NCBI RefSeq assembly: GCF_001545095.1
Contig: NZ_CP013213.1
Span: 2,280,001 to 2,312,000, forward strand
Source of the DNA: Erysipelothrix larvae
GTDB taxonomy: Bacteria > Bacillota_I > Bacilli_A > Erysipelotrichales > Erysipelotrichaceae
DNA: 32,000 nucleotides
Reading direction: 5' to 3'
The notes under the pieces were generated by a model. It searched no databases. It had not been told where the DNA came from and worked only from the letters and a program-made list of their open reading frames with translations. The translations under genes were made by a program, and so were the position numbers. Below, one piece after another: positions 2,268 through 19,067 of the stretch (positions are counted from its first letter, which is position 1; each line of letters starts with the position of its first letter).

Positions 2268-4307
2268 ATGAAACGATTAAGAAAATTAATCTATGCAATG
2301 ATTACGGTTGTTGTATTAGTTGGTATTACAAGTTGTTCGAGCTCGGAGTATGACTTCGCCCGAATTACTGGCCTCGATTACTCCGCCGTAGTTGTGGATG
2401 AAGCGGGTAGTAATGGTAAAGTTGTCATCACAGAACAACTCACTTTTGATATTCATGCTGCAGACGAAGACAATGGATTTTGGGAACTTTGGCGTGAACT
2501 GCCTGAGTCCTATGTTGATGGTGTTAAAGTGGAGTACAATGTGATATCCGTGAAACAAATCTTTGAGGATGGCTCAGTTCAAGTCTTTGAAGAAAGTCCG
2601 AAGCTCTATTGGGATGATGAAGACTTTGTGGGTTATGACGGCAAGTATGGACCTGGAAAATGGTTCCACAGCAAGGGGCCATATGATGGCTATACTAACT
2701 TCGAATGCCTCTTAATCTATGTAGATGGTTTATACCGCGAAACACCTGTGTTTGAAATTCAATATGAAATGTCAAATGCAGCCCTTCGTTACAACGATGC
2801 TTCTGAACTATACCTGTCCCTGTATTATGGTGATTCAATCAACTATCTGGACTCAGTAAAAGGGGAAATCCTTTTCCCGCTTGATAAGATGCCACGTGAG
2901 GGGAACTATGAGGCATTTACGTATGGTACCAATGCACATGAATTCCCATTTGAAGAATCCACATCAAAAAACGAAGGATATCATACATTCTTCTTTGAAC
3001 TCGATGAATCGCAATTAACTTTCAAATCTTTCAATCAATATATTGAGTTTGCACTTATAGCCTTTGGTGAAGACCGTCATGTCTTTACTCAATTCGCTTC
3101 GCAAAACAATTACTTTGACCAAGACATGCTCCCAAGTATTCGGGCAGCACAAGCTGAGTTTGAACAATTACCAATTGTTGCGGCACAAAATAGAATGAAG
3201 CTCTTTGTTGGATCAATCATTGGGACATTTGGTGTGATGATCCTTGCACTCTTCATCAACTTTATTGTCAAGAAAACAAATCCGATGTACAAACCTTCAA
3301 TGCATATTGATTACTTCAGAGATATCCCGAATGATTTAGATGCAAACTTCGCACGTAAGCTTGTCTTTGCGAAAACTTATACTAAAGATAACATTGGTGA
3401 TGGCTATGCAGCGGCTATGTTAAGCCTCGTGCATAAAGGGTATGTTGATGTAGAACAGATCAATCCTTCAAAGGGATGGAGTCAAAAGAATGTCAAGATT
3501 CATGTTCGCAATGACGTACCGAATGAATCACAGATAAACCCCGTTCAAAAACCGGTGCTTTCACCTGTAGAAGAACGCTACTTCAACTTAATATTAAGGC
3601 ATGCAAAAAGTGGAGAAATCACACAACAAGCATTCCAAAATAAAATCTCTAGCGACTATGAATACACCAATCGTTTTGTACAGGATGTGAAAACATCAAC
3701 CGATCGTATTGGTATCGTTGACGGTTACTTTAAAAACAAGAATTACAAGTCACCGAAATATACCATGTTGGGCTTTGCAATTACCTTTGTGGTAATTGGA
3801 ATCCTTGTGATGATTATCGGAAACCTTTCAATCTATCAAACACGATTGGAGTTAGCATATGGTGCCTTCTTCATTCTCGGATTTGGCTTTATCCTATCTG
3901 GCTTGTATATGGCATTTGTATCCCGTAACTATATTCTTCTCACCCAGTTTGGTCAAGACGAATATGAAAAATGGCATGGTCTGTATAAGTTCTTAAACAG
4001 CGAAACCTTGATGAAAGAACGGACGATATTGGAACTTGCTCTTTGGGAAAAATACTTAATCTATGCAACAGCATTTGGTATCTCTGAGAAAGTCGTGAAG
4101 GCTCTTGAGATACGATGTCCAGAAGCAGTCATGAATTCAAGTCCAATACTTAGAAACCCGCACTTTAGAACACGTGCATTCTATGCTACAAGTAGAAATT
4201 CATTCAGCAGTGCAACGCGTTCTGCTTCATTCACAGCCCGAAGCGGAGGCCATGGTGGTTATGGTGGCGGAGGCCGTGGAGGCGGTGGCGGTGGCGGTGG
4301 TCACTAA
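2268..4307 (+). CDS. DUF2207-family membrane lipoprotein with a glycine-rich C-terminal tail
   Basis: Signal peptide with lipobox (VLVGITS-C). A large extracytoplasmic domain is followed by internal TM helices (LFVGSIIGTFGVMILALFINFIV, MLGFAITFVVIGILVMIIG, AFFILGFGFILSGLYMAFV). The tail SGGHGGYGGGGRGGGGGGGGH is characteristic of DUF2207 proteins, which usually neighbour LemA. Confidence 0.8.
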   Translation: MKRLRKLIYAMITVVVLVGITSCSSSEYDFARITGLDYSAVVVDEAGSNGKVVITEQLTFDIHAADEDNGFWELWRELPESYVDGVKVEYNVISVKQIFEDGSVQVFEESPKLYWDDEDFVGYDGKYGPGKWFHSKGPYDGYTNFECLLIYVDGLYRETPVFEIQYEMSNAALRYNDASELYLSLYYGDSINYLDSVKGEILFPLDKMPREGNYEAFTYGTNAHEFPFEESTSKNEGYHTFFFELDESQLTFKSFNQYIEFALIAFGEDRHVFTQFASQNNYFDQDMLPSIRAAQAEFEQLPIVAAQNRMKLFVGSIIGTFGVMILALFINFIVKKTNPMYKPSMHIDYFRDIPNDLDANFARKLVFAKTYTKDNIGDGYAAAMLSLVHKGYVDVEQINPSKGWSQKNVKIHVRNDVPNESQINPVQKPVLSPVEERYFNLILRHAKSGEITQQAFQNKISSDYEYTNRFVQDVKTSTDRIGIVDGYFKNKNYKSPKYTMLGFAITFVVIGILVMIIGNLSIYQTRLELAYGAFFILGFGFILSGLYMAFVSRNYILLTQFGQDEYEKWHGLYKFLNSETLMKERTILELALWEKYLIYATAFGISEKVVKALEIRCPEAVMNSSPILRNPHFRTRAFYATSRNSFSSATRSASFTARSGGHGGYGGGGRGGGGGGGGH

Positions 4308-4323
4308 TACTCAAAACTAATTT

Positions 4324-4394
4324 AAAAACAAGGCGAATGACCTGTACCCATCTTTTTTAAGATTTGAAAGGTCAGTTTATAGCCTTGTTTTTTT
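4324..4394. terminator. Bidirectional intrinsic terminator between convergent genes
   Basis: Outer stem AAAAACAAGGC / GCCTTGTTTTT and inner stem TGACCT / AGGTCA. An A-run lies on the left and a T-run on the right, so it can terminate both the DUF2207 gene (+) and the 218-aa gene (-). Confidence 0.7.
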
Positions 4395-5049
4395 AATGGA
4401 AGTTGTCCTTCTTAGGTGGTTTGGGAATATCAATGACTTTCGGTGCATCATAACCATCCGTAATATATATCGTGATTCCTTTCTTTTGAAACTCATAGAA
4501 TATCTTCGCAAGATCTCGTTGTAGTTTCTCAGATCGTATAATAATCTTATCAATACCCTGTTGCTTAAAATATTGCGGCGATGGGATGTCTTGATTGTAT
4601 AAGTCCCAACTGTTATCAAATATAGAAGCGTTCATCTTGTAACGAAGCATTCGATTCGTATCAATCATGAATACAGGTGGCGCATCATGCCTTATGGTTA
4701 AAGTTTCTAGGTAGGGTGTTCCCCATATAAGTGCATGTTGGATATCCGCATTATCAACCAGTGACATTGCTTGGTCTTGTTGTGTTGTACCATTATAAAG
4801 TACAATGGGCCGATACCCTAGGGTTGCGCACGCCAACCCTTCTAAAACACCTTCATAGCTTGGCATATCAAGGAGTATTGCTGTATCCTTTTTGAGCGTT
4901 TCAATGTAGTGAATCTTTGGGATTGAAAAATTGACGTTAAGTGTGTCCTTTGCTCGTTCACTCAATCCGATAAATAGAACAGGACGAACCCAATCAACCC
5001 ATCGCATACCAAAGGGTGCCCATCGTTTATAATAGTCTTTATCGTTCAT
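4393..5049 (-). CDS. Hypothetical cytosolic protein (218 aa), translationally coupled partner of the ATP-grasp ligase
   Basis: The SD AAGGGG lies inside the end of the upstream gene, with only 2 nt between the upstream stop and this ATG. There is no signal peptide or TM helix. The alternating hydrophobic-strand/helix pattern (TAILLDMPSYEGVLEGLACATLGYRPIVLYNG, DKIIIRSEK...GITIYITDG) suggests an alpha/beta fold. I recognise no family motif. Confidence 0.7.
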   Translation of the reverse strand: MNDKDYYKRWAPFGMRWVDWVRPVLFIGLSERAKDTLNVNFSIPKIHYIETLKKDTAILLDMPSYEGVLEGLACATLGYRPIVLYNGTTQQDQAMSLVDNADIQHALIWGTPYLETLTIRHDAPPVFMIDTNRMLRYKMNASIFDNSWDLYNQDIPSPQYFKQQGIDKIIIRSEKLQRDLAKIFYEFQKKGITIYITDGYDAPKVIDIPKPPKKDNFH

Positions 5050-5051
5050 GA

Positions 5052-6260
5052 TTATTCCCCTTCAACCAAGACGGGTATGTCTTGGGCATGTGAATCAATC
5101 CGTGGTGACTCACTGATTCTTGCATAATACCCTGCACCTTTCCCATTGATGCTATAAGCACCAAGGCAGACATGATACGGTTTGTTTTCGTCATCAATTA
5201 ATGCTTTACTTTCAAATTTCTTTTGTGCAATATATCGCTTTGGATGTCTTCTAACGTCTTTCATGATTTTATCATACTCATCCCCACGACATGCTTCCTT
5301 TATGGTAATGCCTTCACCCACTCTTCCCCAAACGGGTTTATAGATGAACCCTTCTTTTCCTTTGGCCTCTCTAACTGTCACAGTTTCTGGAAGTAATTTC
5401 TTCCAAGTTGGTAGATCCACGCCTACTTGGGCTAAATCATCCCAGATAAGTGGAAACTGTTTGGATTGAGCAAATTCCGCAATTGGATGGTTGCATGAAG
5501 GTGTCAGTGTATTAAAGTAACCACCCCAATGTTTGGGTTTAATATCAATAAGCCATTCAAGTGGTGTAAACCGTATTATCCCATCTATTTTCCCTTCATG
5601 ATTATCAAGAATACTCATAGCTTGGGTATTCTCAAATTTTAAATGGTCAGCCGCACCATAGATAATGTCATAGCCTGAGGCTTTAAGTTGATCGCCTAAG
5701 AATTGCATGACTTGGCGATCATCACTATAAGAGGTACAATGGACCATCATAATCCGACCCCCTCGACGTACCTTTTCTTTGACAGCTTCTCCCATACGTT
5801 CACCAAAACTATGAACTGTGAATGTATGAGACGGGAAATATTTGGATGCAATTTGCGGCATCAGGGACGCTTCTGCAAAACCACCTGGAACATCACTATT
5901 AACTTCACTCAGTGCCCACCCACCTTGAACAACAGGATGAAAATCATAACGCATTAAGCGAATGTGCAGATGTGGATCATAGTTAGTCATGTTCTTAATG
6001 TCTTTTTTTATCTTACGCGACAACCCTAGTTTCTTGGTGAGATTCAGATTTTGATTGATGATTGTTTCAGCTTCAATCGTTTCTTTACTCAGACTTTCCG
6101 TCAGGGACTTAAGTTCTTGATGCTCTTGTTTACTTAAAACAAGAACATGTCGTGCAATGGTATTGTTATCAAGGAACTGAGGGTCCCATTTGTAGCCATC
6201 AAAAATAACATCGAGTCGATAATCCTCATATTGATCCTTTGGTATTGTTAATAGTTTCAT
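5052..6260 (-). CDS. Glutathionylspermidine-synthase-like ATP-grasp amidoligase (YgiC/YjfC-like, no CHAP amidase domain)
   Basis: Several segments parallel E. coli YgiC/YjfC motifs. These are RLMRYDFHPVVQGGWALSEVNSDVPGGFAEASL (R.D....G...L.E.N.D.P), FAQSKQFPLIWDDL, IYKPVWGRVGEGITI and LGAYSINGKGAGYYARISESPRIDSHAQDIPV. The start was trimmed from 6383 to ATG at 6260 (MKLLTIPKDQYEDY), which is preceded by AAAGGGG. Confidence 0.8.
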   Translation of the reverse strand: MKLLTIPKDQYEDYRLDVIFDGYKWDPQFLDNNTIARHVLVLSKQEHQELKSLTESLSKETIEAETIINQNLNLTKKLGLSRKIKKDIKNMTNYDPHLHIRLMRYDFHPVVQGGWALSEVNSDVPGGFAEASLMPQIASKYFPSHTFTVHSFGERMGEAVKEKVRRGGRIMMVHCTSYSDDRQVMQFLGDQLKASGYDIIYGAADHLKFENTQAMSILDNHEGKIDGIIRFTPLEWLIDIKPKHWGGYFNTLTPSCNHPIAEFAQSKQFPLIWDDLAQVGVDLPTWKKLLPETVTVREAKGKEGFIYKPVWGRVGEGITIKEACRGDEYDKIMKDVRRHPKRYIAQKKFESKALIDDENKPYHVCLGAYSINGKGAGYYARISESPRIDSHAQDIPVLVEGE

Positions 6261-6433
6261 GCATCTGCCCCTTTTTAGTAACACGTCTGTTTCAATACTA
6301 TCATTATACTTTAAGGGCATCAAAAAATGAAATGAAAATCCTTCATTTGTCTTTATCGGCAAGGTGAACAAAATGGTCTTCAAATTGTTTTTTATATGTA
6401 TTCGTGTTAGTATTTCTACAAAGGAGAAAACCT

Positions 6434-6985
6434 ATGGAACGCTATATTATTGGGGCAATACTATTCGCTCTTGCCATTTATGTTTTGGTTATGTACAACA
6501 GTCTTGTGAAACGTAGAAATATGGTTGAAAATCAAAAGAGTCAAATTGATGTTGAACTACAAAGACGCTTTGACCTCATTCCAAATCTTGTTGAGGTCGT
6601 TAAAGGGTATGCTGGTTATGAGAAAAATACATTAGAAGATGTCATCAGTGCACGAAACAACTACATACATACTAAAGACAATACTTCGGATGCACTTCAG
6701 TCAAATGCATCACTTTCTGGTGCTTTGTCTAGATTATTTGCGCTATCAGAAAGTTATCCTGACCTGAAGGCAAATAAGAACTTTCTTGACTTGCAAAGTG
6801 AATTATCAAATACTGAGAAGAAAATTGCGTACTCGCGTCAGTTTTACAATGACTCTGTTTACAGACTTAACAATAAGATTGATATGTTCCCTTCGAACAT
6901 TGTTGCAACCTTATTTAGGTTCAAGAAAGAAGCCTTCTTTGAGACCACTGATTCTCAACGGGCTAATGTCAATGTAACCCTATAA
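6434..6985 (+). CDS. lemA: LemA family membrane protein
   Basis: N-terminal TM anchor (YIIGAILFALAIYVLVMY) followed by YNSLVKRRNMVENQKSQIDVELQRRFDLIPNLVEVVKGYAGYEKNTLEDV and FYNDSVYRLNNKIDMFPSNIVA, typical LemA signatures. Start set to ATG at 6434, 7 nt after AAGGAG. Confidence 0.9.
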   Translation: MERYIIGAILFALAIYVLVMYNSLVKRRNMVENQKSQIDVELQRRFDLIPNLVEVVKGYAGYEKNTLEDVISARNNYIHTKDNTSDALQSNASLSGALSRLFALSESYPDLKANKNFLDLQSELSNTEKKIAYSRQFYNDSVYRLNNKIDMFPSNIVATLFRFKKEAFFETTDSQRANVNVTL

Positions 6986-7012: not shown

Positions 7013-8484
7013 GGTGTTGGTGGAGTTCAATCCATAGAATCTTAAGTTACAGTACTCACTATGATTTCTAGTGAGTACTTTTCATTTCTAATCTTACCAT
7101 AGTATTACAAATTAAGAGTACTCTTGTTCTAAAATTATCAAAGCTTCGATAACCGAAGGCAATCCGTTTAATTACTTTGATTAAATTATTGGTTCCTTCT
7201 AGACGACCGTTAGAGTGAGGATACTTTATTGCATTTGAGACTGATGTCTCATATTTTTTTAGCGTCTTAATTGCTTTTTTCATCTGGATTGAGATGTTCT
7301 TTGGAGGGTCATTCAGGATTTCTAAAAGTGAAGTTATATTTTTATTTCGGATTGCTTGAGTTAAGCGTTGATGTACCCAATACGTTTCCTCAAACGTCTT
7401 GTCAACTCTCAATAAATCATCGACGATCATTGATTCACTCATCAAGTGTTTATAACATCGATAGTGACGGCAGTCATTACTATCAAGCTTGAGATTATCT
7501 TTTAATATAAGCTTCCAATAGTTCTTCAGTTTTGTCTTTGAGTCTGGTGTATCATTCATGACCGATACACGTGTCGAATTGAGTGCGCGATTCAAGTGCT
7601 GAACGATATGGAAACGATCCGTAATGATTTCAGCATTATGGAAACATGATTTGATAAGTTGAATATACGGCTCATACATATCAATTGAAATGGTTTTAAC
7701 TTAATCACGGACTTCCTTTGGATATGTGTTGAAATAGCTCTTTAAATGGCCTAACAGCCTGTTTTGCACGATGTCGAGCACGTTCCCAGAGTCTGCATCC
7801 ATATAAATGAATGACATTTTACCTTTTACAGATTTGACGGATCTAAACTCATCAAATGCAAGGTGTTCAGGAAGGGACAATAGAGAGACAACAAAATCTT
7901 CACGAATGTTTCCCAGCCAATTATTGACTGTTGTATGAGAGATATTTAAACTCTTTGCAATATCTTTTACAGAACGTTTGGACTTCAATTCAAGTATCGC
8001 TGCATGAAAAGTATTTGTTGATATTGAATGATTTGGTTTTACACATGTAGTTTCAGCGATTGTACCTTTATTGCATTTCTTACAACAAAACCGAGGTTTC
8101 TTTAGTCTGAGAATTGTCGGAGTATTTGATGCATTTGGTAGTTTAATAGAAACAGTCTTTATCCCATTTTTATAAATTGAGTGATTCTCATTGATACACC
8201 CACAGTGTACACAATGAGGAGGCGTGTTTACAGACAGTATTGCTTTGCATATATGAGCGGTTTTACCCTTAACTGTTTCTTGAGAAACACAATTATCTGA
8301 AAAAATGATGTTTGGGTCTTTAATATTTAAGAGCGAACGTATACAATTAGAGATGGACATAGATTTGTTCCTTTCTTGTGTGTAGTAACTTAAGTATAAG
8401 GTAAATCTATGTCTTTTTCTATTGTCTGATTAACATTAAAAAAGATGTTGATGATTTCTCACCAACACCAGAATTTCAAGAACC
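6998..8484 (-). mobile_element. ISL3-family insertion sequence, decayed copy (no target-site duplication seen)
   Basis: Terminal inverted repeats GGTTCTTTAAAATTTGGTGTTGGTG (6998..7022) and the reverse complement of 8460..8484 (GGTTCTTGAAATTCTGGTGTTGGTG) match at 22 of 25 positions. They enclose an ISL3-type transposase reading frame. The flanking 8-mers AATAAATC and TGCGAAAT differ. Confidence 0.8.
7068..8360 (-). pseudogene. ISL3 transposase interrupted by a single in-frame TAA
   Basis: Track ORFs 7701..8360 (zinc-finger plus HTH N-terminal part) and 7068..7679 (DDE part, DRFHIVQHLN) are in the same frame, since 1293 nt equals 431 codons. The only break is TAA at 7701..7703, and the reading continues ...YPKEVRD*VKTISIDMYEPY. 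Confidence 0.8.
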
Positions 8485-9470: not shown

Positions 9471-10202
9471 ATGACAATTAACATAGCACTGATCGACAGG
9501 GATATAGAAACACAGGAGTTTGTGCATTCTTACCTCAACTCTCAAAACTATACTTGTTCTACAAGATTATCTTTAAATACCTACAATACTAGCGATGATT
9601 TTTTTTACGATTTCCCTCAAGTGAAACCAGATCTTATTCTACTTGAGGTTGATCTCCCGGACATAAATGGACTCGAATTTTCAAATAAAATTCTTACATC
9701 GCATCCGGATACCTATATTGTCTTTTTAACATCAAATTGTCGAAATATTAACGAGGCATTTGAACATAATATATCAAACTATATTCTCAAGGAATCGATA
9801 AAAGCTGACTTACCGATTGTATTAGGAGATGTTTTGAAACACCTGTGCTCAAAGATATTCCAAAAGGTTACTTTAAGAACCGAGTATGGTCCAGCCGACA
9901 TTAACTGCGAAGATATTGTTTTGATTCAATATGTAAATCGCAAACCAATCATTTACCTAGAAAATGATACGATAAATATCTGTGGGCATTCTCTTAAATC
10001 AATCTATAAACATCTCAATCCTACACAATTTATTAGACCAAATAGTAGTACAATCATAAACATGAAGCACATTAAATCAATCTGTAAAAATACGATACAC
10101 TTATATAATAACAATCAGTTAATCAGCGTTTCTAGAGGGAGATATACTGACATTCGTCAACGCTACATTCAATATTGTCTTCAAGTGACAAATAATAATT
10201 AA
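9471..10202 (+). CDS. LytTR-family response regulator, orphan, with an atypical receiver domain
   Basis: The receiver domain (IALIDRD..., DLILLEVDLPDINGLEF, IVFLTSNC, YILKE) is followed by a LytTR DNA-binding domain (IVLIQYVNRKPIIYLENDTINICGHSLKSIYKHLNPTQFIRPNSSTIINMKHI). No histidine kinase gene is adjacent. Confidence 0.85.
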   Translation: MTINIALIDRDIETQEFVHSYLNSQNYTCSTRLSLNTYNTSDDFFYDFPQVKPDLILLEVDLPDINGLEFSNKILTSHPDTYIVFLTSNCRNINEAFEHNISNYILKESIKADLPIVLGDVLKHLCSKIFQKVTLRTEYGPADINCEDIVLIQYVNRKPIIYLENDTINICGHSLKSIYKHLNPTQFIRPNSSTIINMKHIKSICKNTIHLYNNNQLISVSRGRYTDIRQRYIQYCLQVTNNN

Positions 10203-10225
10203 TAATATCAAATAATTCTTCAACT

Positions 10226-10260
10226 GATTATCTTGCTTATTTTACTAGATAATCTTTTTT
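10226..10260 (+). terminator. Intrinsic terminator after the response regulator gene
   Basis: GATTATCT, a 13-nt loop and AGATAATC, followed by TTTTTT. Confidence 0.75.
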
Positions 10261-10302
10261 GTTATTATAAAGGAAATACTTATTATCAGAGGAGAAACCA
10301 CC

Positions 10303-11070
10303 ATGAAGTACTTTCACAGTAACATTGATATTAGCAATCACGATGAGATTATAGGAACACTGCTTCTTCATTCAAATCTCCCTGGACCGCGTGGTAACTT
10401 AGAATTAATTGAGGAATTTGCCACCGTGTTCTCAAATCTCCAACAAGATGATGCTCATTTTGAGTTTCTATTTAAGCTATGGAAGACACCTTCAACTGGA
10501 GACGATGCAGAAACAATTCTCGTTTTATCTGGACTTTGGGGGTTTGGATATTTTGCCATTAATAATCAATATAGATCTCGTGTGTATCCAGTATTCCAAT
10601 GTGCAATGAACGATCCACGATGGCGTGTTCGTGAAATCATTCAAGAAAGTTTGAAAATCGTTGCCCGTCATGATTATAATCAGTTTGTTTCTTTGTATGC
10701 TTCGTATGACCATCCTACACTATTAGAATTGCGCGCATTTCTCTCAACCGCTGCACACCCAGAAATTCTGAAGGAATCGCATCAACACAATTTCGCAATC
10801 CATCTGTTGAAACAGTCTTTTGACCGGTACCTTATAGTCTCACAACAACTCACCAAAAAAGATTTAGCCTTTGATGCATACCAAAAAGGACTTATGTTTG
10901 CACCGAGTGTTATTGTTGCTGCATGTCCTGCACTTGGTTTTCAAGTTCTGAATTCATATGCAAATAAATCTCCACTACTCAACAAAGTCCTTATTTCAAA
11001 CCTTAAAAAGAATCGATTAATAAAGAAGTATGGGGATACTTGTGAATCATGCTTGTCGATCCTGCAGTAA
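10303..11070 (+). CDS. Hypothetical all-helical protein, possibly HEAT/ARM-like repeat (DNA-alkylation-repair-like fold?)
   Basis: SD GGAGAAACCACC precedes the ATG. DPRWRVREIIQESLKIV resembles a HEAT-repeat signature. The family assignment is weak and comes from memory only. Confidence 0.6.
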   Translation: MKYFHSNIDISNHDEIIGTLLLHSNLPGPRGNLELIEEFATVFSNLQQDDAHFEFLFKLWKTPSTGDDAETILVLSGLWGFGYFAINNQYRSRVYPVFQCAMNDPRWRVREIIQESLKIVARHDYNQFVSLYASYDHPTLLELRAFLSTAAHPEILKESHQHNFAIHLLKQSFDRYLIVSQQLTKKDLAFDAYQKGLMFAPSVIVAACPALGFQVLNSYANKSPLLNKVLISNLKKNRLIKKYGDTCESCLSILQ

Positions 11071-12989: not shown

Positions 12990-13403
12990 CTAAAAATCTA
13001 TCTCATCGTCATCAAAGTCATACATTTGACCTTGAACACCATTTCTCCCAACTTCTTTTAAGTGGTCAGAGATTTCTTGTAGTCCTAGGTTTTGTGAAGT
13101 AACATACTCTATGATCATCCCTAAATTAACACCGGTAATAATTTCAATATCTTGTCTGTCTTTTTTTGCAACTACTGCTGCATTAAAAGGAGTCCCTCCA
13201 AACAAATCTGCTAGGACTAATATTTCTTCATTCTTATGTATATTGAAATAGTCACTTATTTTCTCTAAGGTCTGATCAAGTCCCATATCATGTGTCATGC
13301 AAATACTTTCTGCATTCGATATGTCTCCAACAATCATTTTTGCAGCATTCAAAAAATGTTCTGCAAGATAACCATGACTAATAATTAAAAGTTGTCTATT
13401 CAT
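12990..13403 (-). CDS. PTS mannose-family EIIA component
   Basis: MNRQLLIISHGYLAE contains the phosphorylatable His, and DLFGGTPFN is present. The start overlaps the murQ stop by 4 nt (ATGA). Confidence 0.85.
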   Translation of the reverse strand: MNRQLLIISHGYLAEHFLNAAKMIVGDISNAESICMTHDMGLDQTLEKISDYFNIHKNEEILVLADLFGGTPFNAAVVAKKDRQDIEIITGVNLGMIIEYVTSQNLGLQEISDHLKEVGRNGVQGQMYDFDDDEIDF

Positions 13404-14323
13404 TTTGATAACCCCGTTACAAATTGAATTGCTTTTCTAACATTTCCATTTTCTTTTATTAATGCCTGTTCTGCAACTTCCAAAGTTACATCACCAAGCT
13501 CCATAACGATTGAGTTGGCTACTGAATAATTTGCACTATTAAACAGGACAGTTGAGTCTTCAATGGATAGCCCAGTAATCGCATGTATCATATTTATTGC
13601 TCTCAATACGAGTTTCTCATTTGTAGCTTGGACATGAACCATATAATTATCATAGACCTTACCAGATAAGATCATTGCTGTTGTGGACAGCATATTAACT
13701 ACCATCTTTTGAGATGTTCCAGCTTTCATGCGTGTTGATCCAGAGACTACTTCTGATCCAACGGGAACTTCAATTGAACACTCAACTATCTTTGACATTT
13801 CACTATTAAGATTATTTGTTATTCCAATTGTGTATGCACCTAAATCGTTTGCTTTATTCAGTGCACCGAGTGTATATGGCGTTCTTCCACTTGCAGCAAT
13901 TCCAATAACTACATCTAGTTTGGAAACATTTGCTTGTAGAATGTCATTCTCACCCTCTTCATAATTGTCTTCAATTCCTTCAACTGCTTGGAACATTGCA
14001 CCTATTCCGCCCGCAATTATTCCGAATGCTCTTTCACTGGGAACATTGTATGTTGGTTGTAACTCAACTGCATCGAGTACGCCAATACGTCCTGATGAAC
14101 CTGCACCAATATAGATTATTCTTCCACCCATATTAAATCTTTTTGATATTTCAATTGAGGCACATGCGATTTTATCAATACTTGGTTGAATTGCATTTGC
14201 AACAACTTTATCCTGTTCATTGATAATTTTTACAATTTCTTGCGCACTAAAAACATCGATTGATTTCGATTCCTCATTTACTGATTCTGTAGATAGATCA
14301 GCAATCATATTTTTATTGTTCAT
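13400..14323 (-). CDS. murQ: N-acetylmuramic acid 6-phosphate etherase (SIS domain)
   Basis: Collinear with E. coli MurQ: GAGSSGRIGVLDAVELQPTY, AVEGIED, GIAASGRTPY, GSTRMKAGTSQKMVVNMLST and ATNEKL. Both catalytic Glu positions are present. Confidence 0.9.
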   Translation of the reverse strand: MNNKNMIADLSTESVNEESKSIDVFSAQEIVKIINEQDKVVANAIQPSIDKIACASIEISKRFNMGGRIIYIGAGSSGRIGVLDAVELQPTYNVPSERAFGIIAGGIGAMFQAVEGIEDNYEEGENDILQANVSKLDVVIGIAASGRTPYTLGALNKANDLGAYTIGITNNLNSEMSKIVECSIEVPVGSEVVSGSTRMKAGTSQKMVVNMLSTTAMILSGKVYDNYMVHVQATNEKLVLRAINMIHAITGLSIEDSTVLFNSANYSVANSIVMELGDVTLEVAEQALIKENGNVRKAIQFVTGLSK

Positions 14324-14326
14324 TCA

Positions 14327-15172
14327 TTACTCCTTTGATTTCAAGAGTGATGTTAGTTTACTTGTAGAAACGATTCCTTCCTCTATTTCGCTAAGACGTG
14401 GATTTATATACCCGAAATAGAGTAAATCAGCCATTAACATTGCATTGATCTTTGAAGTAATTGCACCAATTCTTACTAAGTTTTCTGAATCAGGTATCTT
14501 CAAGACAACACTTGAGCTTTGAGCAAGACGTGATTTATCATCTCTAGTAACTGAAATGACACTTGCTCCGTTCTTTATTGCAACTTCAGCAGGGTAAATA
14601 ACTTCAAGCGTTCTTCCACTGTATGAAAATGCAATTATTACGTCACCTTTCTTTGCATAATTAATAAACTCCAAAGTCATGTGACTATCGAAGTTAAAAA
14701 TTGCTGACTTATTAACTCTATTGAGCTTATGATATAGATCGTAAGCAGGAAGCGATGATGCACCAACTCCAAAAATAAATATTCTATTAGAGTTTTGTAT
14801 TATATCAATCGCTTTATCTAACGCTTCAACATCAAGTTGATAAAAGAAATCTTTAGTCCCATTTTCAATAACAACCCCTAGTTTTTCTGCTAATTGTTCG
14901 GTGCTATCATTTTGCATGATTATAGGGTCTATCGGTACAATGCCTACATTCGAGTCAATTACTAATTGTCGTTTAAGCTCCTCTAGACCTTCAAAATTAA
15001 AATACTTGGCAAAGCGTACAACTGAAGCAGAGGAAGTGGAACTTCTATCACCAATCTCTTGCGCTGTTAGTTTCACAAAATCATCAACATGCAAGAACAT
15101 GAAATCGGCAATTTGCTTTTGAGTCTTGCTTAATTTCTGGTATTCACTTCTAACCTGAAATAATATACTCAT
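14327..15172 (-). CDS. RpiR/MurR-family transcriptional regulator (HTH_6 plus SIS)
   Basis: N-terminal KLSKTQKQIADFM...TAQEIGDRSSTSSASVVRFAKYFNFEG and a C-terminal SIS domain (IFIFGVGASS, AFSYSGRT). GGAGG lies 8 nt upstream of the ATG. Confidence 0.88.
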   Translation of the reverse strand: MSILFQVRSEYQKLSKTQKQIADFMFLHVDDFVKLTAQEIGDRSSTSSASVVRFAKYFNFEGLEELKRQLVIDSNVGIVPIDPIIMQNDSTEQLAEKLGVVIENGTKDFFYQLDVEALDKAIDIIQNSNRIFIFGVGASSLPAYDLYHKLNRVNKSAIFNFDSHMTLEFINYAKKGDVIIAFSYSGRTLEVIYPAEVAIKNGASVISVTRDDKSRLAQSSSVVLKIPDSENLVRIGAITSKINAMLMADLLYFGYINPRLSEIEEGIVSTSKLTSLLKSKE

Positions 15173-15196
15173 TTAGGCCACCTCCTCTATCTATAT

Positions 15197-15667
15197 CTAA
15201 AACATTGTTGTAATTAATGAGTCTGTCTCTGTTGGTAACATTTGAGCTGTCACTATTATACCATCATTTACCAAATCTTGTAATTGTGATATTTCTGCTT
15301 CAGTCAGACTTACTGACTTCTTGATTGATCTGCTTCCATCTTTAGCAGCAACATTCCCAATATTGATTGATTTTAGGTTGAGGTTCTTTGCTAAGAACAC
15401 CATATCCGCAACAGTTTTAGTTATCAAAAATATATTCTGTCCATCATAACTATTGTCACTTAAGCGTATTAAGGCCCTCTCTTTTGATAAAAGGGATAGT
15501 TTGACACCTGCTGGTTTTGCAATCTTCAATGCTGCAATCTGCATTTCATCTCCGATAATTTCATCATTCACGACCACAATACGATCTGCTTTAATCGTAT
15601 TAGTCCATACCATTGCGACTTGACCGTGTATTAGCCTTTCGTCTACTCTTGCATTTACGATATTCAT
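15197..15667 (-). CDS. PTS mannose-family EIIB component
   Basis: The N-terminus MNIVNARVDERLIHGQVAMVWTN carries the phospho-His motif. Confidence 0.88.
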   Translation of the reverse strand: MNIVNARVDERLIHGQVAMVWTNTIKADRIVVVNDEIIGDEMQIAALKIAKPAGVKLSLLSKERALIRLSDNSYDGQNIFLITKTVADMVFLAKNLNLKSINIGNVAAKDGSRSIKKSVSLTEAEISQLQDLVNDGIIVTAQMLPTETDSLITTMF

Positions 15668-15686
15668 AAGTTACCTCCTAAATTAG

Positions 15687-16517
15687 TCAACTAAATATTC
15701 CAACAATAATATTCAAGATATTCTGAAGATTTCCGAGTACCATTCCTAATCCAATAAGTACAAAGATTAGTTTAGTTGAAGTCATTTTTTCTTTATCTAA
15801 CAATTTATATGACATGAAAACTATAAGCACTGGTATTAACCCAGGCATGATTTTATCAAGCATTTCTGATACTACCATCGATACTTCCCCAACATTAAAT
15901 GTTAGGTCAATTTTATAGGTAATAACTGATGCAACTAAACCACCTACAACCGTTAACCCTAATATGGATGCTCCTTCAGTAAGTGAACGTAGCTTATTGC
16001 CAAATTCTGTAGCAATTTTACGTCCTTGTTCATAACCAAGATAAGTAAATCTATATCTTACAAACATGACAGCGATAACACCAATTAAAGGAATTACAAG
16101 TCCAAATGCATTTCCATCAAGTGCCATATATGATGCAATTGAGAATATTATTGCTCGGTAGATGGCAATAAATAATGTATCCCCTACACCAGCAAATGGT
16201 CCCATGAGCCCGGCTTTTAGACCGCGAACAACTTCTTCAGATTCCATACCCATTTCTTCTTCAATTGCCATATCTGCCCCAATAATTAGATGGGACATTG
16301 CAGGTGTTGTATTGAAGTATGCAAGATGCATATCCAATGCTTTTTTCATTGCTTCAGGATCATCACCATAGAGCCGTTTCAATGCTGGCATGATTACATA
16401 AGCATAACCAAGACCTTGCATTTTTCCATAGTTCCATCCTAATTGTAGACCAAATAGATTTCGAACGTATACTTTATTTATATCACTTTTAGTAAGTTTA
16501 TTATGTTGATTAGCCAT
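15687..16517 (-). CDS. PTS mannose-family EIID component
   Basis: KLTKSDINKVYVRNLFGLQLGWNYGKMQGLGYAY matches the ManZ N-terminal signature. Start set to ATG at 16517, which overlaps the IIC stop (ATGGCTAA). The track start at 16565 lies inside the IIC gene. Confidence 0.85.
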   Translation of the reverse strand: MANQHNKLTKSDINKVYVRNLFGLQLGWNYGKMQGLGYAYVIMPALKRLYGDDPEAMKKALDMHLAYFNTTPAMSHLIIGADMAIEEEMGMESEEVVRGLKAGLMGPFAGVGDTLFIAIYRAIIFSIASYMALDGNAFGLVIPLIGVIAVMFVRYRFTYLGYEQGRKIATEFGNKLRSLTEGASILGLTVVGGLVASVITYKIDLTFNVGEVSMVVSEMLDKIMPGLIPVLIVFMSYKLLDKEKMTSTKLIFVLIGLGMVLGNLQNILNIIVGIFS

Positions 16518-17304
16518 CGATTTCAATCTCCTCATCATCTCCACCAAATCCTGTTTGTCCAACAAGTGTTCCTTGTCTCGATAAATGAATTCCTGCTAGT
16601 GCTAAACCAAGTAATGCAACCGCTAATAGTGAGAACATACTTGATCCATAAGCAATGACTACAAATCCAATAACCAAATAAGCCCAATAACGTTTTACTG
16701 GTAAGTAATGTAGTAAGATTGCCATACCCATTGCTGGCAAGATTTGACCCGCTGCTTTTAAACCAGTCATAAACCATGCTGGGATATAACTATTAATCGC
16801 AACTACTACAGTTTCACCAAATGCTAATCCAACGAATACGGGTATCATACGAGATAACATCCATGGAATTGATCCTAGTAAGTTCGCAATCTCAACACCT
16901 CTTGCATTCCCTTTTAATGCTTCTTTATCCGCTTTTCTTTGAACTATTGTATTTGACATTCTTCCAAGTACATCCAATTGTGTCAATAAAAGACCAATAG
17001 GAATTGCTAAACCAATGCCATATTCTGCCCCGTTACCAGATATTATTGTATATGCGGTTCCCATTATTGCCCCAGATAGATAATCCGGTACAGTCGCTCC
17101 TCCATAAGTTGCTACACCAAGTGTCATTAGTTGCAATGTAGCTCCTATTATTAGACCTGTTTGAAGATCTCCGAGCATAAACCCTGTAAATGTTGCTGCA
17201 AATAGTGGCGAATACAGTCCAGATTGAATTGATATTTGATCGATTACAGCGATACCAACATAAATTACGAGAACTGCAATTATAAAGATATTTAAGTCTC
17301 CCAT
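16510..17304 (-). CDS. PTS mannose-family EIIC component
   Basis: ManY-like sequence, including FTGFMLGDLQTGLIIGATLQLMTLGVATYGGATVPD. Start trimmed to ATG at 17304 (MGDLNIF), after AAGGAGG. Confidence 0.85.
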   Translation of the reverse strand: MGDLNIFIIAVLVIYVGIAVIDQISIQSGLYSPLFAATFTGFMLGDLQTGLIIGATLQLMTLGVATYGGATVPDYLSGAIMGTAYTIISGNGAEYGIGLAIPIGLLLTQLDVLGRMSNTIVQRKADKEALKGNARGVEIANLLGSIPWMLSRMIPVFVGLAFGETVVVAINSYIPAWFMTGLKAAGQILPAMGMAILLHYLPVKRYWAYLVIGFVVIAYGSSMFSLLAVALLGLALAGIHLSRQGTLVGQTGFGGDDEEIEIDG

Positions 17305-17334
17305 ACTTTCCTCCTTAACATTATTAATGTTATA

Positions 17335-17349
17335 GTGTAGCGCTTTCAC
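17335..17349 (-). promoter_or_regulatory. cre-like (CcpA) box downstream of an extended -10 promoter for the mannose-PTS/murQ operon
   Basis: The minus strand reads GTGAAAGCGCTACAC. The left half TGAAAGCG fits the cre consensus WTGNAANCGNWNNCW, while the right half is imperfect. TGTTATATT (extended -10) lies about 10 nt upstream. Confidence 0.45.
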
Positions 17350-17536
17350 TATATGTCTAATATAACACAGATGAAACGCCATTACAATATGTCTATCAAT
17401 ATTTTTTTATATGAAATCAAATTTCTTGTTTTGAGAAATTTTCTTTTCCATCCAAAATAATTCACTCAATATTATTTTTTTAAATTGCTAAAATAGTTTC
17501 TCTTTACTAAAATATCCAAGCAAATAGTAGAAAAAA

Positions 17537-19067
17537 GGTTCAATCACAAATCTTGTGGGATGGCACATTCCTAACATAGGTTTTCCTACTTGCATCAATT
17601 AACTTTAAGAAGAAGTATTCATCATCAGGGTAACCATAACCTTGTCTTCGTAGAGTCTTGATTTTATTATTGATACCTTCTATTTTACCCGCAGAAATCT
17701 TAATAGTTGCATGAGCGATGATTCCTTCAAAGTGATTGTCTAAGAGTCGTCCAAACCATTGAAAGTGTTTGTTTTTTGTAGCTTGACAGATTTCGACAAT
17801 TGAACTGATTTCATCTGCCATTTTACTCTCATCATTAAGGGTGTATGCGTAGCGCAATTTCTCTTTTACCACATCCAGTGTGAAGATTAATGCATTCTCT
17901 TTCAATAGTTCATCGTAACGTACTTCATGACCTTCTTTACGCGTAATGTTGGGTATATTAAATAAAGAACTGCCTTCCTTGATAATCTTTCCATTTCTGG
18001 CTTCATTGTCTTTTCTAATGAGCGTTTCTCGTGATGACATTAAGATGTATCTTGTCTTCTTAAGTGCCGCAGCAGCCTCTATATTCCCTTCATTCTTCAA
18101 ACGATTTTGCTCATCCTTGCGAACCTCGTTGATGACCTTATCATTAAAGTTTTTGATGATATGAAAATGATCAAATACAACTTGGATGTGTTCGCATTTT
18201 TCTTCAAACGCTTCTTGGTAATTTGAGTTCATATCGCATGCAACAGCTTCAACGTGATCCATCCACTTTAGGCCAACATGCTCTATAAAATCATAGACGA
18301 CTTGCTTCTTCTTTCCGTGTGCAATCCATAAAATGTGACCCGTTTCCATATCGATAATATGGGTTGCATACTTATGTCCATCATGGAGTTTAAACTCATC
18401 AATGCCTAGGTATCGTGTGTAGTCCTCTGGTTTCTTTAGTACCTCGCCATCAATTGTATAGAGTTCTTTCAAGCGTTTGAGGTCGATGGCTTTAACAGTG
18501 TTTTTCCCTAATCCTGTAATCTCAGCGACTTGCTTGAGGGTATATGTTCCAATACTGAGTAGGTCTCTTGTATAGTTTTCAAGTTCAATAGTAATAAAGT
18601 GGTTTTCAGCCTTAAACGGTACACTCTGCATCTTTGAATTCCTACAAGAAACACAATAGAATTGGGGTCTATCAAAACGAACATGCATCAGTGTTGCACC
18701 AATACTTAAATGCCTTAGTGTGCACGGTTTACGATTGTTTATATGCATCACCTTACCACAACCGCTGCATACTTTATCTGTTTCTTGAACTTCTAAAATA
18801 CCATGCATGCAATAAGCATCTCTTTGGGATCTTGTTGTTTCGATTGTGGTGTTGGTGTTATGAAATCCACGGAGTGTATTAGGGATTAAGAAATGATTTA
18901 AACATAGTTCTTGTGATTGGGTTAGTGTCTGTGTATAATTCATGTATGGACCTTCCTGTTTGTTTATTCTGCAAAATAAATTCTACAGTAAGGTCTTTTT
19001 TCATTCAAGTTGTTATTATTTTACAAATGTCATTCACAGGCAATCCCACATAAAAAGTGATTGACCC
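17537..19067 (-). mobile_element. Intact ISL3-family insertion sequence with an 8-bp target-site duplication
   Basis: The inverted repeats GGTTCAATCACAAATCTTGTGGGATGGC (17537..17564) and the reverse complement of 19040..19067 (GGGTCAATCACTTTTTATGTGGGATTGC) match at 21 of 28 positions. Identical direct repeats AGAAAAAA flank the element at 17529..17536 and 19068..19075. Confidence 0.9.
17540..18943 (-). CDS. ISL3-family transposase (467 aa, uninterrupted)
   Basis: N-terminal zinc-finger region (CSGCG...CVSC), an HTH (TLKQVAEITGLGKNTVKAI) and a DDE_Tnp_ISL3 core (LGIDEFKL..., VACDMNSNYQEAF, FDHFHIIKNFN, EGINNKIKTLRRQGYGY). Confidence 0.92.
   Translation of the reverse strand: MNYTQTLTQSQELCLNHFLIPNTLRGFHNTNTTIETTRSQRDAYCMHGILEVQETDKVCSGCGKVMHINNRKPCTLRHLSIGATLMHVRFDRPQFYCVSCRNSKMQSVPFKAENHFITIELENYTRDLLSIGTYTLKQVAEITGLGKNTVKAIDLKRLKELYTIDGEVLKKPEDYTRYLGIDEFKLHDGHKYATHIIDMETGHILWIAHGKKKQVVYDFIEHVGLKWMDHVEAVACDMNSNYQEAFEEKCEHIQVVFDHFHIIKNFNDKVINEVRKDEQNRLKNEGNIEAAAALKKTRYILMSSRETLIRKDNEARNGKIIKEGSSLFNIPNITRKEGHEVRYDELLKENALIFTLDVVKEKLRYAYTLNDESKMADEISSIVEICQATKNKHFQWFGRLLDNHFEGIIAHATIKISAGKIEGINNKIKTLRRQGYGYPDDEYFFLKLIDASRKTYVRNVPSHKICD

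Follow-up and report, generated by a model that had tools for sequence, protein, structure and literature searches.

What does an ATP-grasp ligase act on when its gene lies, together with a partner gene of no recognizable family, between the genes of two membrane proteins? The question is raised by a locus of Erysipelothrix larvae, which was analyzed within a window of 32,000 nucleotides (contig NZ_CP013213.1, positions 2,280,001 to 2,312,000; the window is this whole stretch of DNA and all coordinates given without a locus name are positions within it). The locus encodes a ligase of the glutathionylspermidine (GSP) synthase family, GSP_synth, and, directly downstream, a protein designated here as protein X. 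According to an earlier reading of the sequence alone (the original prediction), the pair is located on the opposite strand between a DUF2207 lipoprotein gene and lemA, and the open reading frames (ORFs) and Pfam matches bear this out. Comparison with related loci identified protein X as the fixed partner of its ligase subfamily and revealed, on X itself or on a membrane neighbor, a recurrent Gly-rich C-terminal tail. We propose, with a probability of about 40%, that the ligase and X, acting as a complex, couple the C-terminus of this tail, here the one of the DUF2207 protein, through an amide bond to a polyamine such as spermidine or homospermidine.

Pairing of the ligase with protein X

When loci were collected starting from protein X, the ligase gene abutted X in all 85 loci with upstream DNA (from 7 database and 80 GTDB loci; in the remaining 2 of the 87, X is at a contig edge). 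Starting from the ligase, X was found directly downstream in 65/65 loci with at least 300 nt of downstream sequence (from 80 metagenome loci), and the same adjacency was observed in 3/3 loci reached from DUF2207 and in 3/3 loci reached from the membrane-bound form of X described below as class 3. Overall, all of the approximately 156 loci with enough DNA have a ligase of the same subfamily directly upstream of X, with the two genes abutting or overlapping in all related loci. At least six in-frame ligase-X fusions were found (P0065; L128:6001-7887, L153:675-2672, L154:5962-7959, L157:492-2390, and L159:895-2832), with lengths of 628-673 aa and originating from several metagenome contigs. Protein X is the fixed partner of its ligase subfamily, and the co-conservation that the original prediction had proposed to check through gene neighborhoods held in every locus examined.

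In the window, the two genes are separated by only 2 nt (junction ...GAAGGGGAATAA-TC-ATG), with a purine-rich run resembling a Shine-Dalgarno (SD) sequence within the end of the ligase gene, in agreement with the tight coupling predicted for the ligase and its 218-aa partner. The ligase ORF extends over 5052..6383 and offers an alternative, longer start, the TTG at 6383, for which the alignment of homologues gives no support. The ORF is where it had been predicted, with a length of 402 aa from the ATG at 6260 instead of 403. Both genes are real. The exact X protein is on record as E. larvae AOC36_10575, and a word-indexed search returned 62 homologue clusters with 41-59% identity, all of them unnamed.

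The ligase subfamily

The ligase matches the GSP_synth model of Pfam (PF03738) with 80 bits (E value 2.5e-22, cut-off 29.3), residues 35-396 being aligned to positions 22-368 of the 371 in the profile. No CHAP or amidase domain was found in the Pfam search, as anticipated by the original prediction. The score against the NCBIfam model of the bifunctional GspSA (NF007801/PRK10507) was 22 bits, far below the cut-off of 882, and covered only the last ~110 residues. Three motifs, R104-x-D106-F107, E119-x-N121-x-D123-x-P125, and K308-P309..R313-x-G315, are shared without exception by 21 subfamily members and E. coli YjfC, and by analogy they would have catalytic roles with respect to nucleotide, metal, and acyl-phosphate. 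A profile of the subfamily retrieved YgiC as the closest solved structure (7uk8, E value 5.6e-10), followed by GspSA (7e-7), whereas the single ligase sequence had no PDB match. The likeness to YgiC and YjfC pointed out in the original prediction stands in this sense, although it is a remote one. Judged from its sequence, the window ligase is a remote YgiC/YjfC-type enzyme that belongs to a separate subfamily, since the identity to YjfC is only 20%.

In the reaction of GSP_synth enzymes, a carboxylate is first converted to an acyl-phosphate and then transferred to the amine of a polyamine; GSP synthetases couple in this way the Gly carboxylate of glutathione to spermidine. Based on hydropathy, neither the ligase nor protein X is predicted to have transmembrane segments.

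Protein X, an unannotated family

Consistent with the statement of the original prediction that protein X has no recognizable motif, no match was obtained at an E value below 0.1 in Pfam, NCBIfam, PADLOC, or PHROGs, and the best E value of a profile search against the PDB was 0.18. The fold comparison suggested at that time was performed with Foldseek on an AlphaFold2 (AF2) model of X. The best E values were 0.022 (PDB) and 0.006 (BFVD), none was below 1e-3, and the template modeling scores (TM-scores) did not exceed 0.36. Membership of a known family was therefore rejected within the libraries searched, the only hints being weak (isochorismatase, phosphoglycerate kinase [PGK], SLOG, and generic Rossmann folds, with TM-scores of 0.25-0.36). 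A relationship with YjfK/DUF2491, which is of the same size and encoded in the E. coli yjf operon, was discarded as well (hhalign probability of 0.2).

Despite having no name, the family is large. When 1.84 billion representative proteins were searched with a profile, 1139 clusters at 50% identity had E values of at most 1e-3, and 304 of them had E values of at most 1e-30. In a GTDB scan, in which only class 2 X sequences (see below) served as query, relatives were found in at least 411 species genomes. The 80 listed GTDB loci belong to Verrucomicrobiota, Planctomycetota, Acidobacteriota, Gemmatimonadota, Nostoc, spirochaetes, Bacillota, Fibrobacterota, and Lentisphaerota, and also include archaeal metagenome-assembled genomes (MAGs) labelled Candidatus Bathycorpusculum and Nitrososphaerota.

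The AF2 model based on the family alignment (predicted local distance difference test [pLDDT] of 88.7) begins with an N-terminal segment of 50 residues, after which come five beta-alpha units, and suggests that X is a soluble alpha/beta Rossmann-like domain. The residues W10, W17, P23, F26, D61, N86, P125, F127, D130, R133, D145, N146, D154, P156, and D179 are conserved family-wide. Given the secondary-structure positions of the model, the polar ones are at or just past the C-terminal ends of the strands, the place where ligands bind in Rossmann-like domains. None of the positions conserved family-wide is a Cys, Ser, His, or Lys. The surface of X is conserved in its acidic and aromatic residues. 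The conserved combination of Asp and Asn with aromatic residues is, by analogy, reminiscent of sites that bind polyamines, and X may act as an adaptor, a reader, or a hydrolase.

Three architectures and their tails

Based on the C-termini of the 150 best X representatives, three classes were defined. Class 1, the type found in the window, has ~215 aa and consists of X alone, with neither tail nor transmembrane segment; its fixed neighbors are the ligase and a DUF2207 protein that carries a tail. Class 2, the majority, has ~250 aa, and in these proteins X is followed by a short hydrophobic helix and the tail GLRRN[SA]AGGFGxxIP[ED]PSSGG.G (for example, ...RRNSAGGFGAVIPEPSSSGGYG), the fixed neighbors being a DUF350-like gene and then the ligase. 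In class 3 (395-600 aa), X is followed by four transmembrane segments and a tail that is first Arg-rich and then Gly/Tyr-rich, ending in GGFGG or GYGG, and the ligase is the only fixed neighbor. Each architecture comprises a ligase, X, a membrane anchor, and a Gly-rich tail, differently split over polypeptides.

The tail sets class 2 X apart from the genes around it. GG[FY]G occurs within the last 40 residues in 58/58 class 2 X genes versus 4/960 other genes of the same loci, and a terminal Gly is present in 73/80 versus 77/960; none of the 960 other genes combines both. The class 2 operon encodes, in this order, a DUF350-like polytopic membrane protein of ~265 aa, the ligase, and X with its GGFG tail (e.g., L008:5940-8756), and is found in many phyla as well as in two Candidatus Bathycorpusculum MAGs and one Nitrososphaerota MAG (L008-L087). 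With a purpose-built hidden Markov model, the DUF350-like gene was detected directly upstream of the ligase in 70/71 class 2 loci, while the DUF350 model of Pfam matched one of two such proteins tested. For class 3, hydropathy predicts a cytoplasmic tail, on the same side as the ligase.

One of the class 3 loci (L174:2001-5011, on a contig with a Defluviitaleaceae MAG protein) also has a 602-aa radical SAM gene whose overlap with the start of the ligase gene suggests an additional operon member in that lineage. This gene is missing from the other two class 3 loci.

The DUF2207 protein, its tail, and LemA

In the clade of the window, the tail is found on the neighboring membrane protein. This protein matches both DUF2207 models above the cut-off (PF20990, E value 4e-35; PF09972, E value 1.6e-7), and its gene is beside ligase-X in 10/10 database loci (L001-L007, L090-L092) and in 28 of the 29 class 1 metagenome loci whose flanks comprise 4 kb or more. 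LemA is present in 7 of the same 10 database loci and in 10/22 metagenome loci with enough flank. The gene order varies among related loci but the components are retained. The link of this ligase family to envelope modules is thus recurrent, as the original prediction had surmised, and the DUF2207 adjacency, named beforehand as counting against the idea if confined to this strain, recurs in database and metagenome loci alike. All of the outcomes that it had named as refuting failed to occur. Its picture of a pair wedged inside a DUF2207-LemA unit has to be revised, since the core that is conserved consists of the ligase, X, and DUF2207, with LemA, found in about half of the loci, as a frequent, non-obligatory member of the module. 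An origin of ligase-X as a strain-specific insertion splitting a DUF2207-LemA operon was ruled out, as the architecture is conserved across loci. LemA-DUF2207 pairs have been noted in the literature as recurrent neighbors with no assigned function. In an otherwise window-like locus, an additional 164-aa ORF without Pfam match is found between X and DUF2207 (L090:7243-7737).

The hydropathy of the DUF2207 protein indicates a lipobox signal, an outside domain (residues 26-311), and three transmembrane segments (312-330, 500-518, and 533-551). The C-terminal region that follows them (552-679), and with it the tail, is predicted to face the cytoplasm, where the ligase and X would also be found. 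Within the class 1 clade, the neighboring DUF2207 protein ends near-invariantly in ...GYGGGGRGGGGGGGGH. The sequence YGGGGRGGGGGGGGH is identical in the DUF2207 protein of the window and in six distinct DUF2207 neighbors of the loci L001-L007, in which the X proteins are 41-59% identical. Moreover, GGRGGGGGGGGH forms the C-terminal end in 93 of the 120 best DUF2207 homologues, which are 48-100% identical overall, and the tail is much more conserved than the protein body (48-65% identity).

The GGGGGGGGH end is missing from 27 of these 120 closest homologues (e.g., P0247, P0259, P0261, P0263, and P0266-P0268). In most of the 27, strings such as GGGGGRRRSLKPIYKKE or RWRRWW follow the (GGN)n tract, and from their sequences these divergent endings look like frameshifted readings of glycine codons. 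An RRRSLK[PL]IYKKE ending is common to about a dozen distinct DUF2207 clusters of ~700 aa and may therefore be a genuine variant of a lineage and not the result of misassembly. No plasmid-borne DUF2207 homologues were found for the tail comparison. The DUF2207 protein is a probable membrane partner or target of ligase-X.

The polyamine link and the parallel in E. coli

In 15/29 class 1 loci, as well as in the class 2 loci of Nostoc, the gene after X encodes a ~490-aa Sacchrp_dh_NADP protein whose PDB matches are homospermidine synthases only (2ph5, E value 2e-36). The presence of this homospermidine synthase homologue in about half of the class 1 loci supports a polyamine link.

A parallel is offered by the E. 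coli enzymes YgiC and YjfC, for which the RefSeq product name is "peptide--spermidine ligase." The two enzymes make no glutathionylspermidine (Sui et al. 2012). As described in the papers that cite it, the work of Pederick et al. 2023 established their peptide-spermidine ligase activity on peptides in vitro and not their natural substrate, so the original prediction, in which their substrates were given as still unknown, is outdated except for the natural one. YgiC and YjfC are adjoined by the DUF1190 proteins YgiB and YjfM, respectively. YgiB ends in ..TRGGFG...SMGG and YjfM in ..SRGGYG...HWGG (in fuller form, ...VSRGGYGRSSSARGHWGG), that is, with the RGG[FY]G...GG theme of class 2 X. Just upstream, yjfL encodes a DUF350 protein, and the PspA-family gene that the original prediction had placed in this cluster is indeed there (YjfJ).

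Another E. coli protein with such a tail is YgcG (L173:2212-3084), a TPM-domain membrane protein ending in ...GGFSGGGGSSGGGGASGRW, whose gene is immediately preceded by yqcG, a small gene of envelope stress. The possibility that YgiC or YjfC also act on tails like this one deserves attention.

Proposed mechanism and alternative explanations

We envisage the ligase, X, and the DUF2207 protein as one module at the inner face of the membrane. The ligase would activate a carboxylate as an acyl-phosphate, most likely that of the C-terminus of the cytoplasmic DUF2207 tail, and would then join it to a polyamine, for example, spermidine or homospermidine. Protein X would dock the ligase onto the tail or carrier, or else bind the polyamine end of the product. 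As an outcome, a flexible neutral tail would become a cationic tether, and the behavior of the DUF2207/LemA membrane module would be altered. The amidation is placed at the C-terminus because this is the only carboxylate common to all tails. In this model, the tail as substrate, the polyamine as amine, and the role of X are inferred, whereas the family and intact motifs of the ligase, its pairing and fusions with X, the DUF2207 linkage, the conservation and recurrence of the tails, the homospermidine synthase linkage, and the predicted side of the tail come from the data. The interpretation given in the original prediction is supported in part: its general idea of an amidoligase system with a recurrent tie to the envelope is retained.

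Several observations weigh against tail polyamination. The window contains neither a homospermidine synthase gene nor any other polyamine gene, and the DUF2207 tail terminates in His while the other tails terminate in Gly. About eight conserved polar residues persist in tail-less X and suit an enzyme or a protein that binds small molecules no less than a passive adaptor. With ~20% identity between the ligase and YjfC, their substrates may differ. On the E. coli side, YgiB is described as a lipoprotein and its tail may be periplasmic, and the Gly-rich tail of YgcG, which has no ligase gene adjacent, indicates that such tails exist without a ligase. Also, the loci were retrieved through their similarity, and a large number derive from comparable habitats (e.g., termite gut), so that the counts reported above are from non-independent samples.

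As an alternative, the ligase could link a polyamine to a peptide, an amino acid, or another metabolite, giving a soluble product comparable to glutathionylspermidine, with X as the second enzyme of the pathway (making or trimming the acid, for instance) and DUF2207, LemA, and DUF350 sensing, exporting, or responding to the product. The characterized GSP synthetases and trypanothione synthetase do act on small molecules, the activity of YgiC and YjfC, as far as the citing papers describe it, concerns peptides in vitro, and a homospermidine synthase gene in the operon fits a metabolic pathway, as does the active-site-like location of the conserved Asp, Asn, and Arg residues at the C-terminal strand ends of the Rossmann-like X. 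However, this explanation accounts neither for the Gly-rich tail found on X or a membrane neighbor in every architecture nor for the conservation of the tail above the rest of the DUF2207 protein, and the loci have no conserved transporter or further biosynthetic gene; we consider it rather unlikely. The repeated fusion of ligase and X in one chain, together with the precedent of GspSA and trypanothione synthetase, would be in line with another possibility, namely that the ligase writes the mark on the tail and X is a hydrolase that erases it, mirroring the synthetase and amidase halves of GspSA. The polar residues of X are conserved in all three classes, but no Cys, Ser, His, or Lys is available family-wide as nucleophile or general base, X had no likeness to CHAP or any other amidase fold in the PDB and Foldseek searches, and one-to-one pairing with translational coupling fits a structural subunit better, which leaves a hydrolase clearly improbable.

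The substrate or carrier might also be X itself, as the original prediction had considered, the ligase modifying its C-terminus (...KPPKKDNFH) or a side chain while the DUF2207 linkage is only regulatory. In classes 2 and 3 the tail does belong to X, which makes X the carrier there, and a conserved KKPPKKDKFH forms the C-terminus of many X proteins of class 1. Within class 1, though, the C-terminus is variable (the ..FH end is seen in only ~11/37 sequences) and aligns with the start of the pre-tail helix of class 2, like a remnant of truncation, whereas the tail of the neighboring DUF2207 protein is near-invariant. The window copy of X is without the Gly-rich tail carried by X in most lineages, the DUF2207 protein carrying it instead, so modification of X is very improbable here, and X is more likely an enzyme subunit than a substrate. 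A further variant keeps the tail but replaces the amine: the C-terminus would be coupled to phosphatidylethanolamine, an amine of the cell wall, or a lysine in a different protein, so that a membrane protein would be tagged, or would itself serve as the tag, in a ubiquitin-, Pup-, or Atg8-like manner. In favor of it, most tails end in Gly-Gly or Gly as in ubiquitin-like modifiers, the partners are membrane-bound, and a homospermidine synthase gene is missing from half of the loci. Since the nearest characterized relatives use polyamines and the homospermidine synthase homologue recurs in Firmicutes and Nostoc loci, we give such tagging the smallest chance among the explanations considered. Polyamination of the tail is the reading that we retain.

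Comparison with known systems

Like YgiC and YjfC, the window ligase is a stand-alone, amidase-less GSP_synth ATP-grasp enzyme, and they have catalytic motifs in common. The respective operons are also alike in encoding a protein with an RGG[FY]G...GG tail (E. coli and class 2), a DUF350 protein (YjfL in E. coli, the DUF350-like membrane protein in class 2 loci), and membrane-stress-type genes (PspA-family YjfJ in E. coli, LemA in the window). They differ in that the DUF1190 partner of E. coli is found neither in the window nor in the related loci, where X or DUF2207 is in its place; that E. coli has no X; and that the ligase follows the tail protein in E. coli but is itself followed by X in the ligase-X loci. 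In the window clade, moreover, the tail is on the DUF2207 protein and has a His end, unlike the E. coli tail proteins.

GspSA and trypanothione synthetase share PF03738 with the window ligase, which by analogy would also join a Gly carboxylate to a polyamine amine via acyl-phosphate chemistry. A second domain accompanies the synthetase in either system, the CHAP amidase at the N-terminal side in GspSA and X, sometimes fused, at the C-terminal side here; X is unrelated to the CHAP domain of GspSA and the window locus has no pointer to glutathione. RimK, whose target is ribosomal protein S6, and tubulin-tyrosine ligase are ATP-grasp enzymes that modify one particular protein tail at its C-terminal carboxylate. 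If the model holds, the window ligase would resemble them in acting on a protein C-terminus; they belong to another ATP-grasp family and add an amino acid, while here a polyamine, a membrane-protein target, and the extra subunit X are proposed.

GSP-like ATP-grasp ligases have been linked with PspA, DUF1190, DUF350, and polyamine genes by Ravi et al. 2024 (PMC11237479). The operons described there are similar to the ligase-X modules in that a GSP-like ATP-grasp enzyme is part of a membrane-integrity cluster with polyamine enzymes and DUF350. That study lists PspA, CesT/Tir, DUF1190, DUF2491, and a K+ channel, and LemA and DUF2207 do not occur in that paper (0 occurrences). Full-text literature searches gave no paper linking DUF2207 or LemA to the GSP-like ligase family. 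What was already known is the association of GSP-like ligases with PspA, DUF1190, DUF350, and polyamine genes, and peptide-polyamine ligase modules of membrane homeostasis. The X family, its strict coupling to the ligase, the invariant DUF2207 tail, and the shared-tail argument for the YgiC/YjfC substrate were not found in the libraries and literature searched.

Features of the locus and other genes of the window

Table 1. Coordinates of the ligase-X locus within the window.
Feature	Position	Strand	Description
DUF2207 membrane lipoprotein	2268..4307	plus	679 aa; convergent with X; Pfam PF09972 and PF20990
Gly-rich C-terminal tail of the DUF2207 protein	4239..4304	plus	...SGGHGGYGGGGRGGGGGGGGH-COOH; element that the ligase may recognize or use as acyl substrate
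Convergent intergenic region DUF2207/X	4308..4392		Long hairpin between an A run and a T run
Protein X	4393..5049	minus	218 aa, ATG start; ligase partner, tail-less class 1 form
Ligase-X junction	5047..5066	minus	Ligase stop TAA, 2 nt, X ATG; SD-like GAAGGGG in the ligase 3' end
Ligase	5052..6260	minus	ATG at 6260, 402 aa; ATP-grasp carboxylate-amine ligase, GSP_synth family, amidase-less
Divergent intergenic region ligase/lemA	6261..6433		Position from ORFs
LemA-family single-pass membrane protein	6404..6985	plus	GTG at 6404 or, more likely, ATG at 6434; Pfam PF04011

The hairpin in the convergent region (free energy of -25.5 kcal/mol, z -4.26, with 0/200 shuffles folding equally well in RNA folding) is absent from the output of a simple terminator scan, which missed it because of its long loop. 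From its sequence, it is likely a two-way terminator serving both DUF2207 and X. On the other side of the pair, the divergent region presumably holds the promoters of both the ligase and lemA. The same divergent arrangement is found in L001, L005-L007, and L090. A common operator in this region was rejected, as the alignment indicates only weak sequence conservation and the promoter scan, in which no consensus promoter was called, performed no better than on shuffles. LemA itself matches PF04011 with 188 bits (E value 1.1e-55) and has one N-terminal transmembrane segment (residues 15-33).

A defence-system or phage origin was rejected as well: the PADLOC defence models gave 0 matches for the ligase, X, DUF2207, and LemA proteins, and the sole PHROG match is a generic "glutathionylspermidine synthase." Upstream of the DUF2207 gene, at 222-1487 on the minus strand, a 421-aa protein is encoded with the unusual architecture of an N-terminal MerR helix-turn-helix (HTH) fused to a long, hydrophobic-looking C-terminal region. 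Although L007 has a MerR gene beside LemA, this regulator was rejected as a module member, given 0 homologues in the 87 loci L001-L087, which include all seven class 1 loci then collected.

Directly after lemA, an ISL3-family transposase is distributed over two ORFs, the DDE part at 7068-7679 and the zinc-ribbon/HTH part at 7701-8360, and is probably a pseudogene. A second ISL3 transposase is intact (467 aa, 17540-18943) and adjoins a cluster of mannose-type phosphotransferase system (PTS), MurQ-like, and RpiR genes (13400-17382). Between the two, at 9471-11070, a LytTR-type response regulator of 243 aa without an adjacent histidine kinase is followed by a 255-aa ORF without Pfam match (10303-11070).

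Implications for the protein families

With X, a large protein family missing from Pfam and NCBIfam is defined, which has more than 1000 clusters at 50% identity and is spread over many phyla and archaea. The ligase of this module is a first enzymatic partner for DUF2207, LemA, and DUF350, widespread membrane proteins lacking an assigned function. The occurrence of Gly-rich C-terminal tails on three unrelated partners of such ligases also provides a concrete candidate substrate for YgiC and YjfC.

Extended beyond the window, the argument would lead to a more general proposal, which we hold to be doubtful: a new post-translational modification, present in bacteria and some archaea, in which a GSP_synth-type ligase polyaminates the C-terminal carboxylate of Gly-rich cytoplasmic tails of membrane proteins and X serves either to recruit the ligase or as a reader of the mark. 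As carriers of the tail, there would be X, DUF2207, or DUF1190 proteins, the resulting cationic tether would regulate LemA/DUF2207, DUF350, and PspA modules, and YgiB and YjfM would be the natural substrates of YgiC and YjfC. If true, C-terminal polyamination would be a new coupling of polyamine levels to membrane homeostasis.

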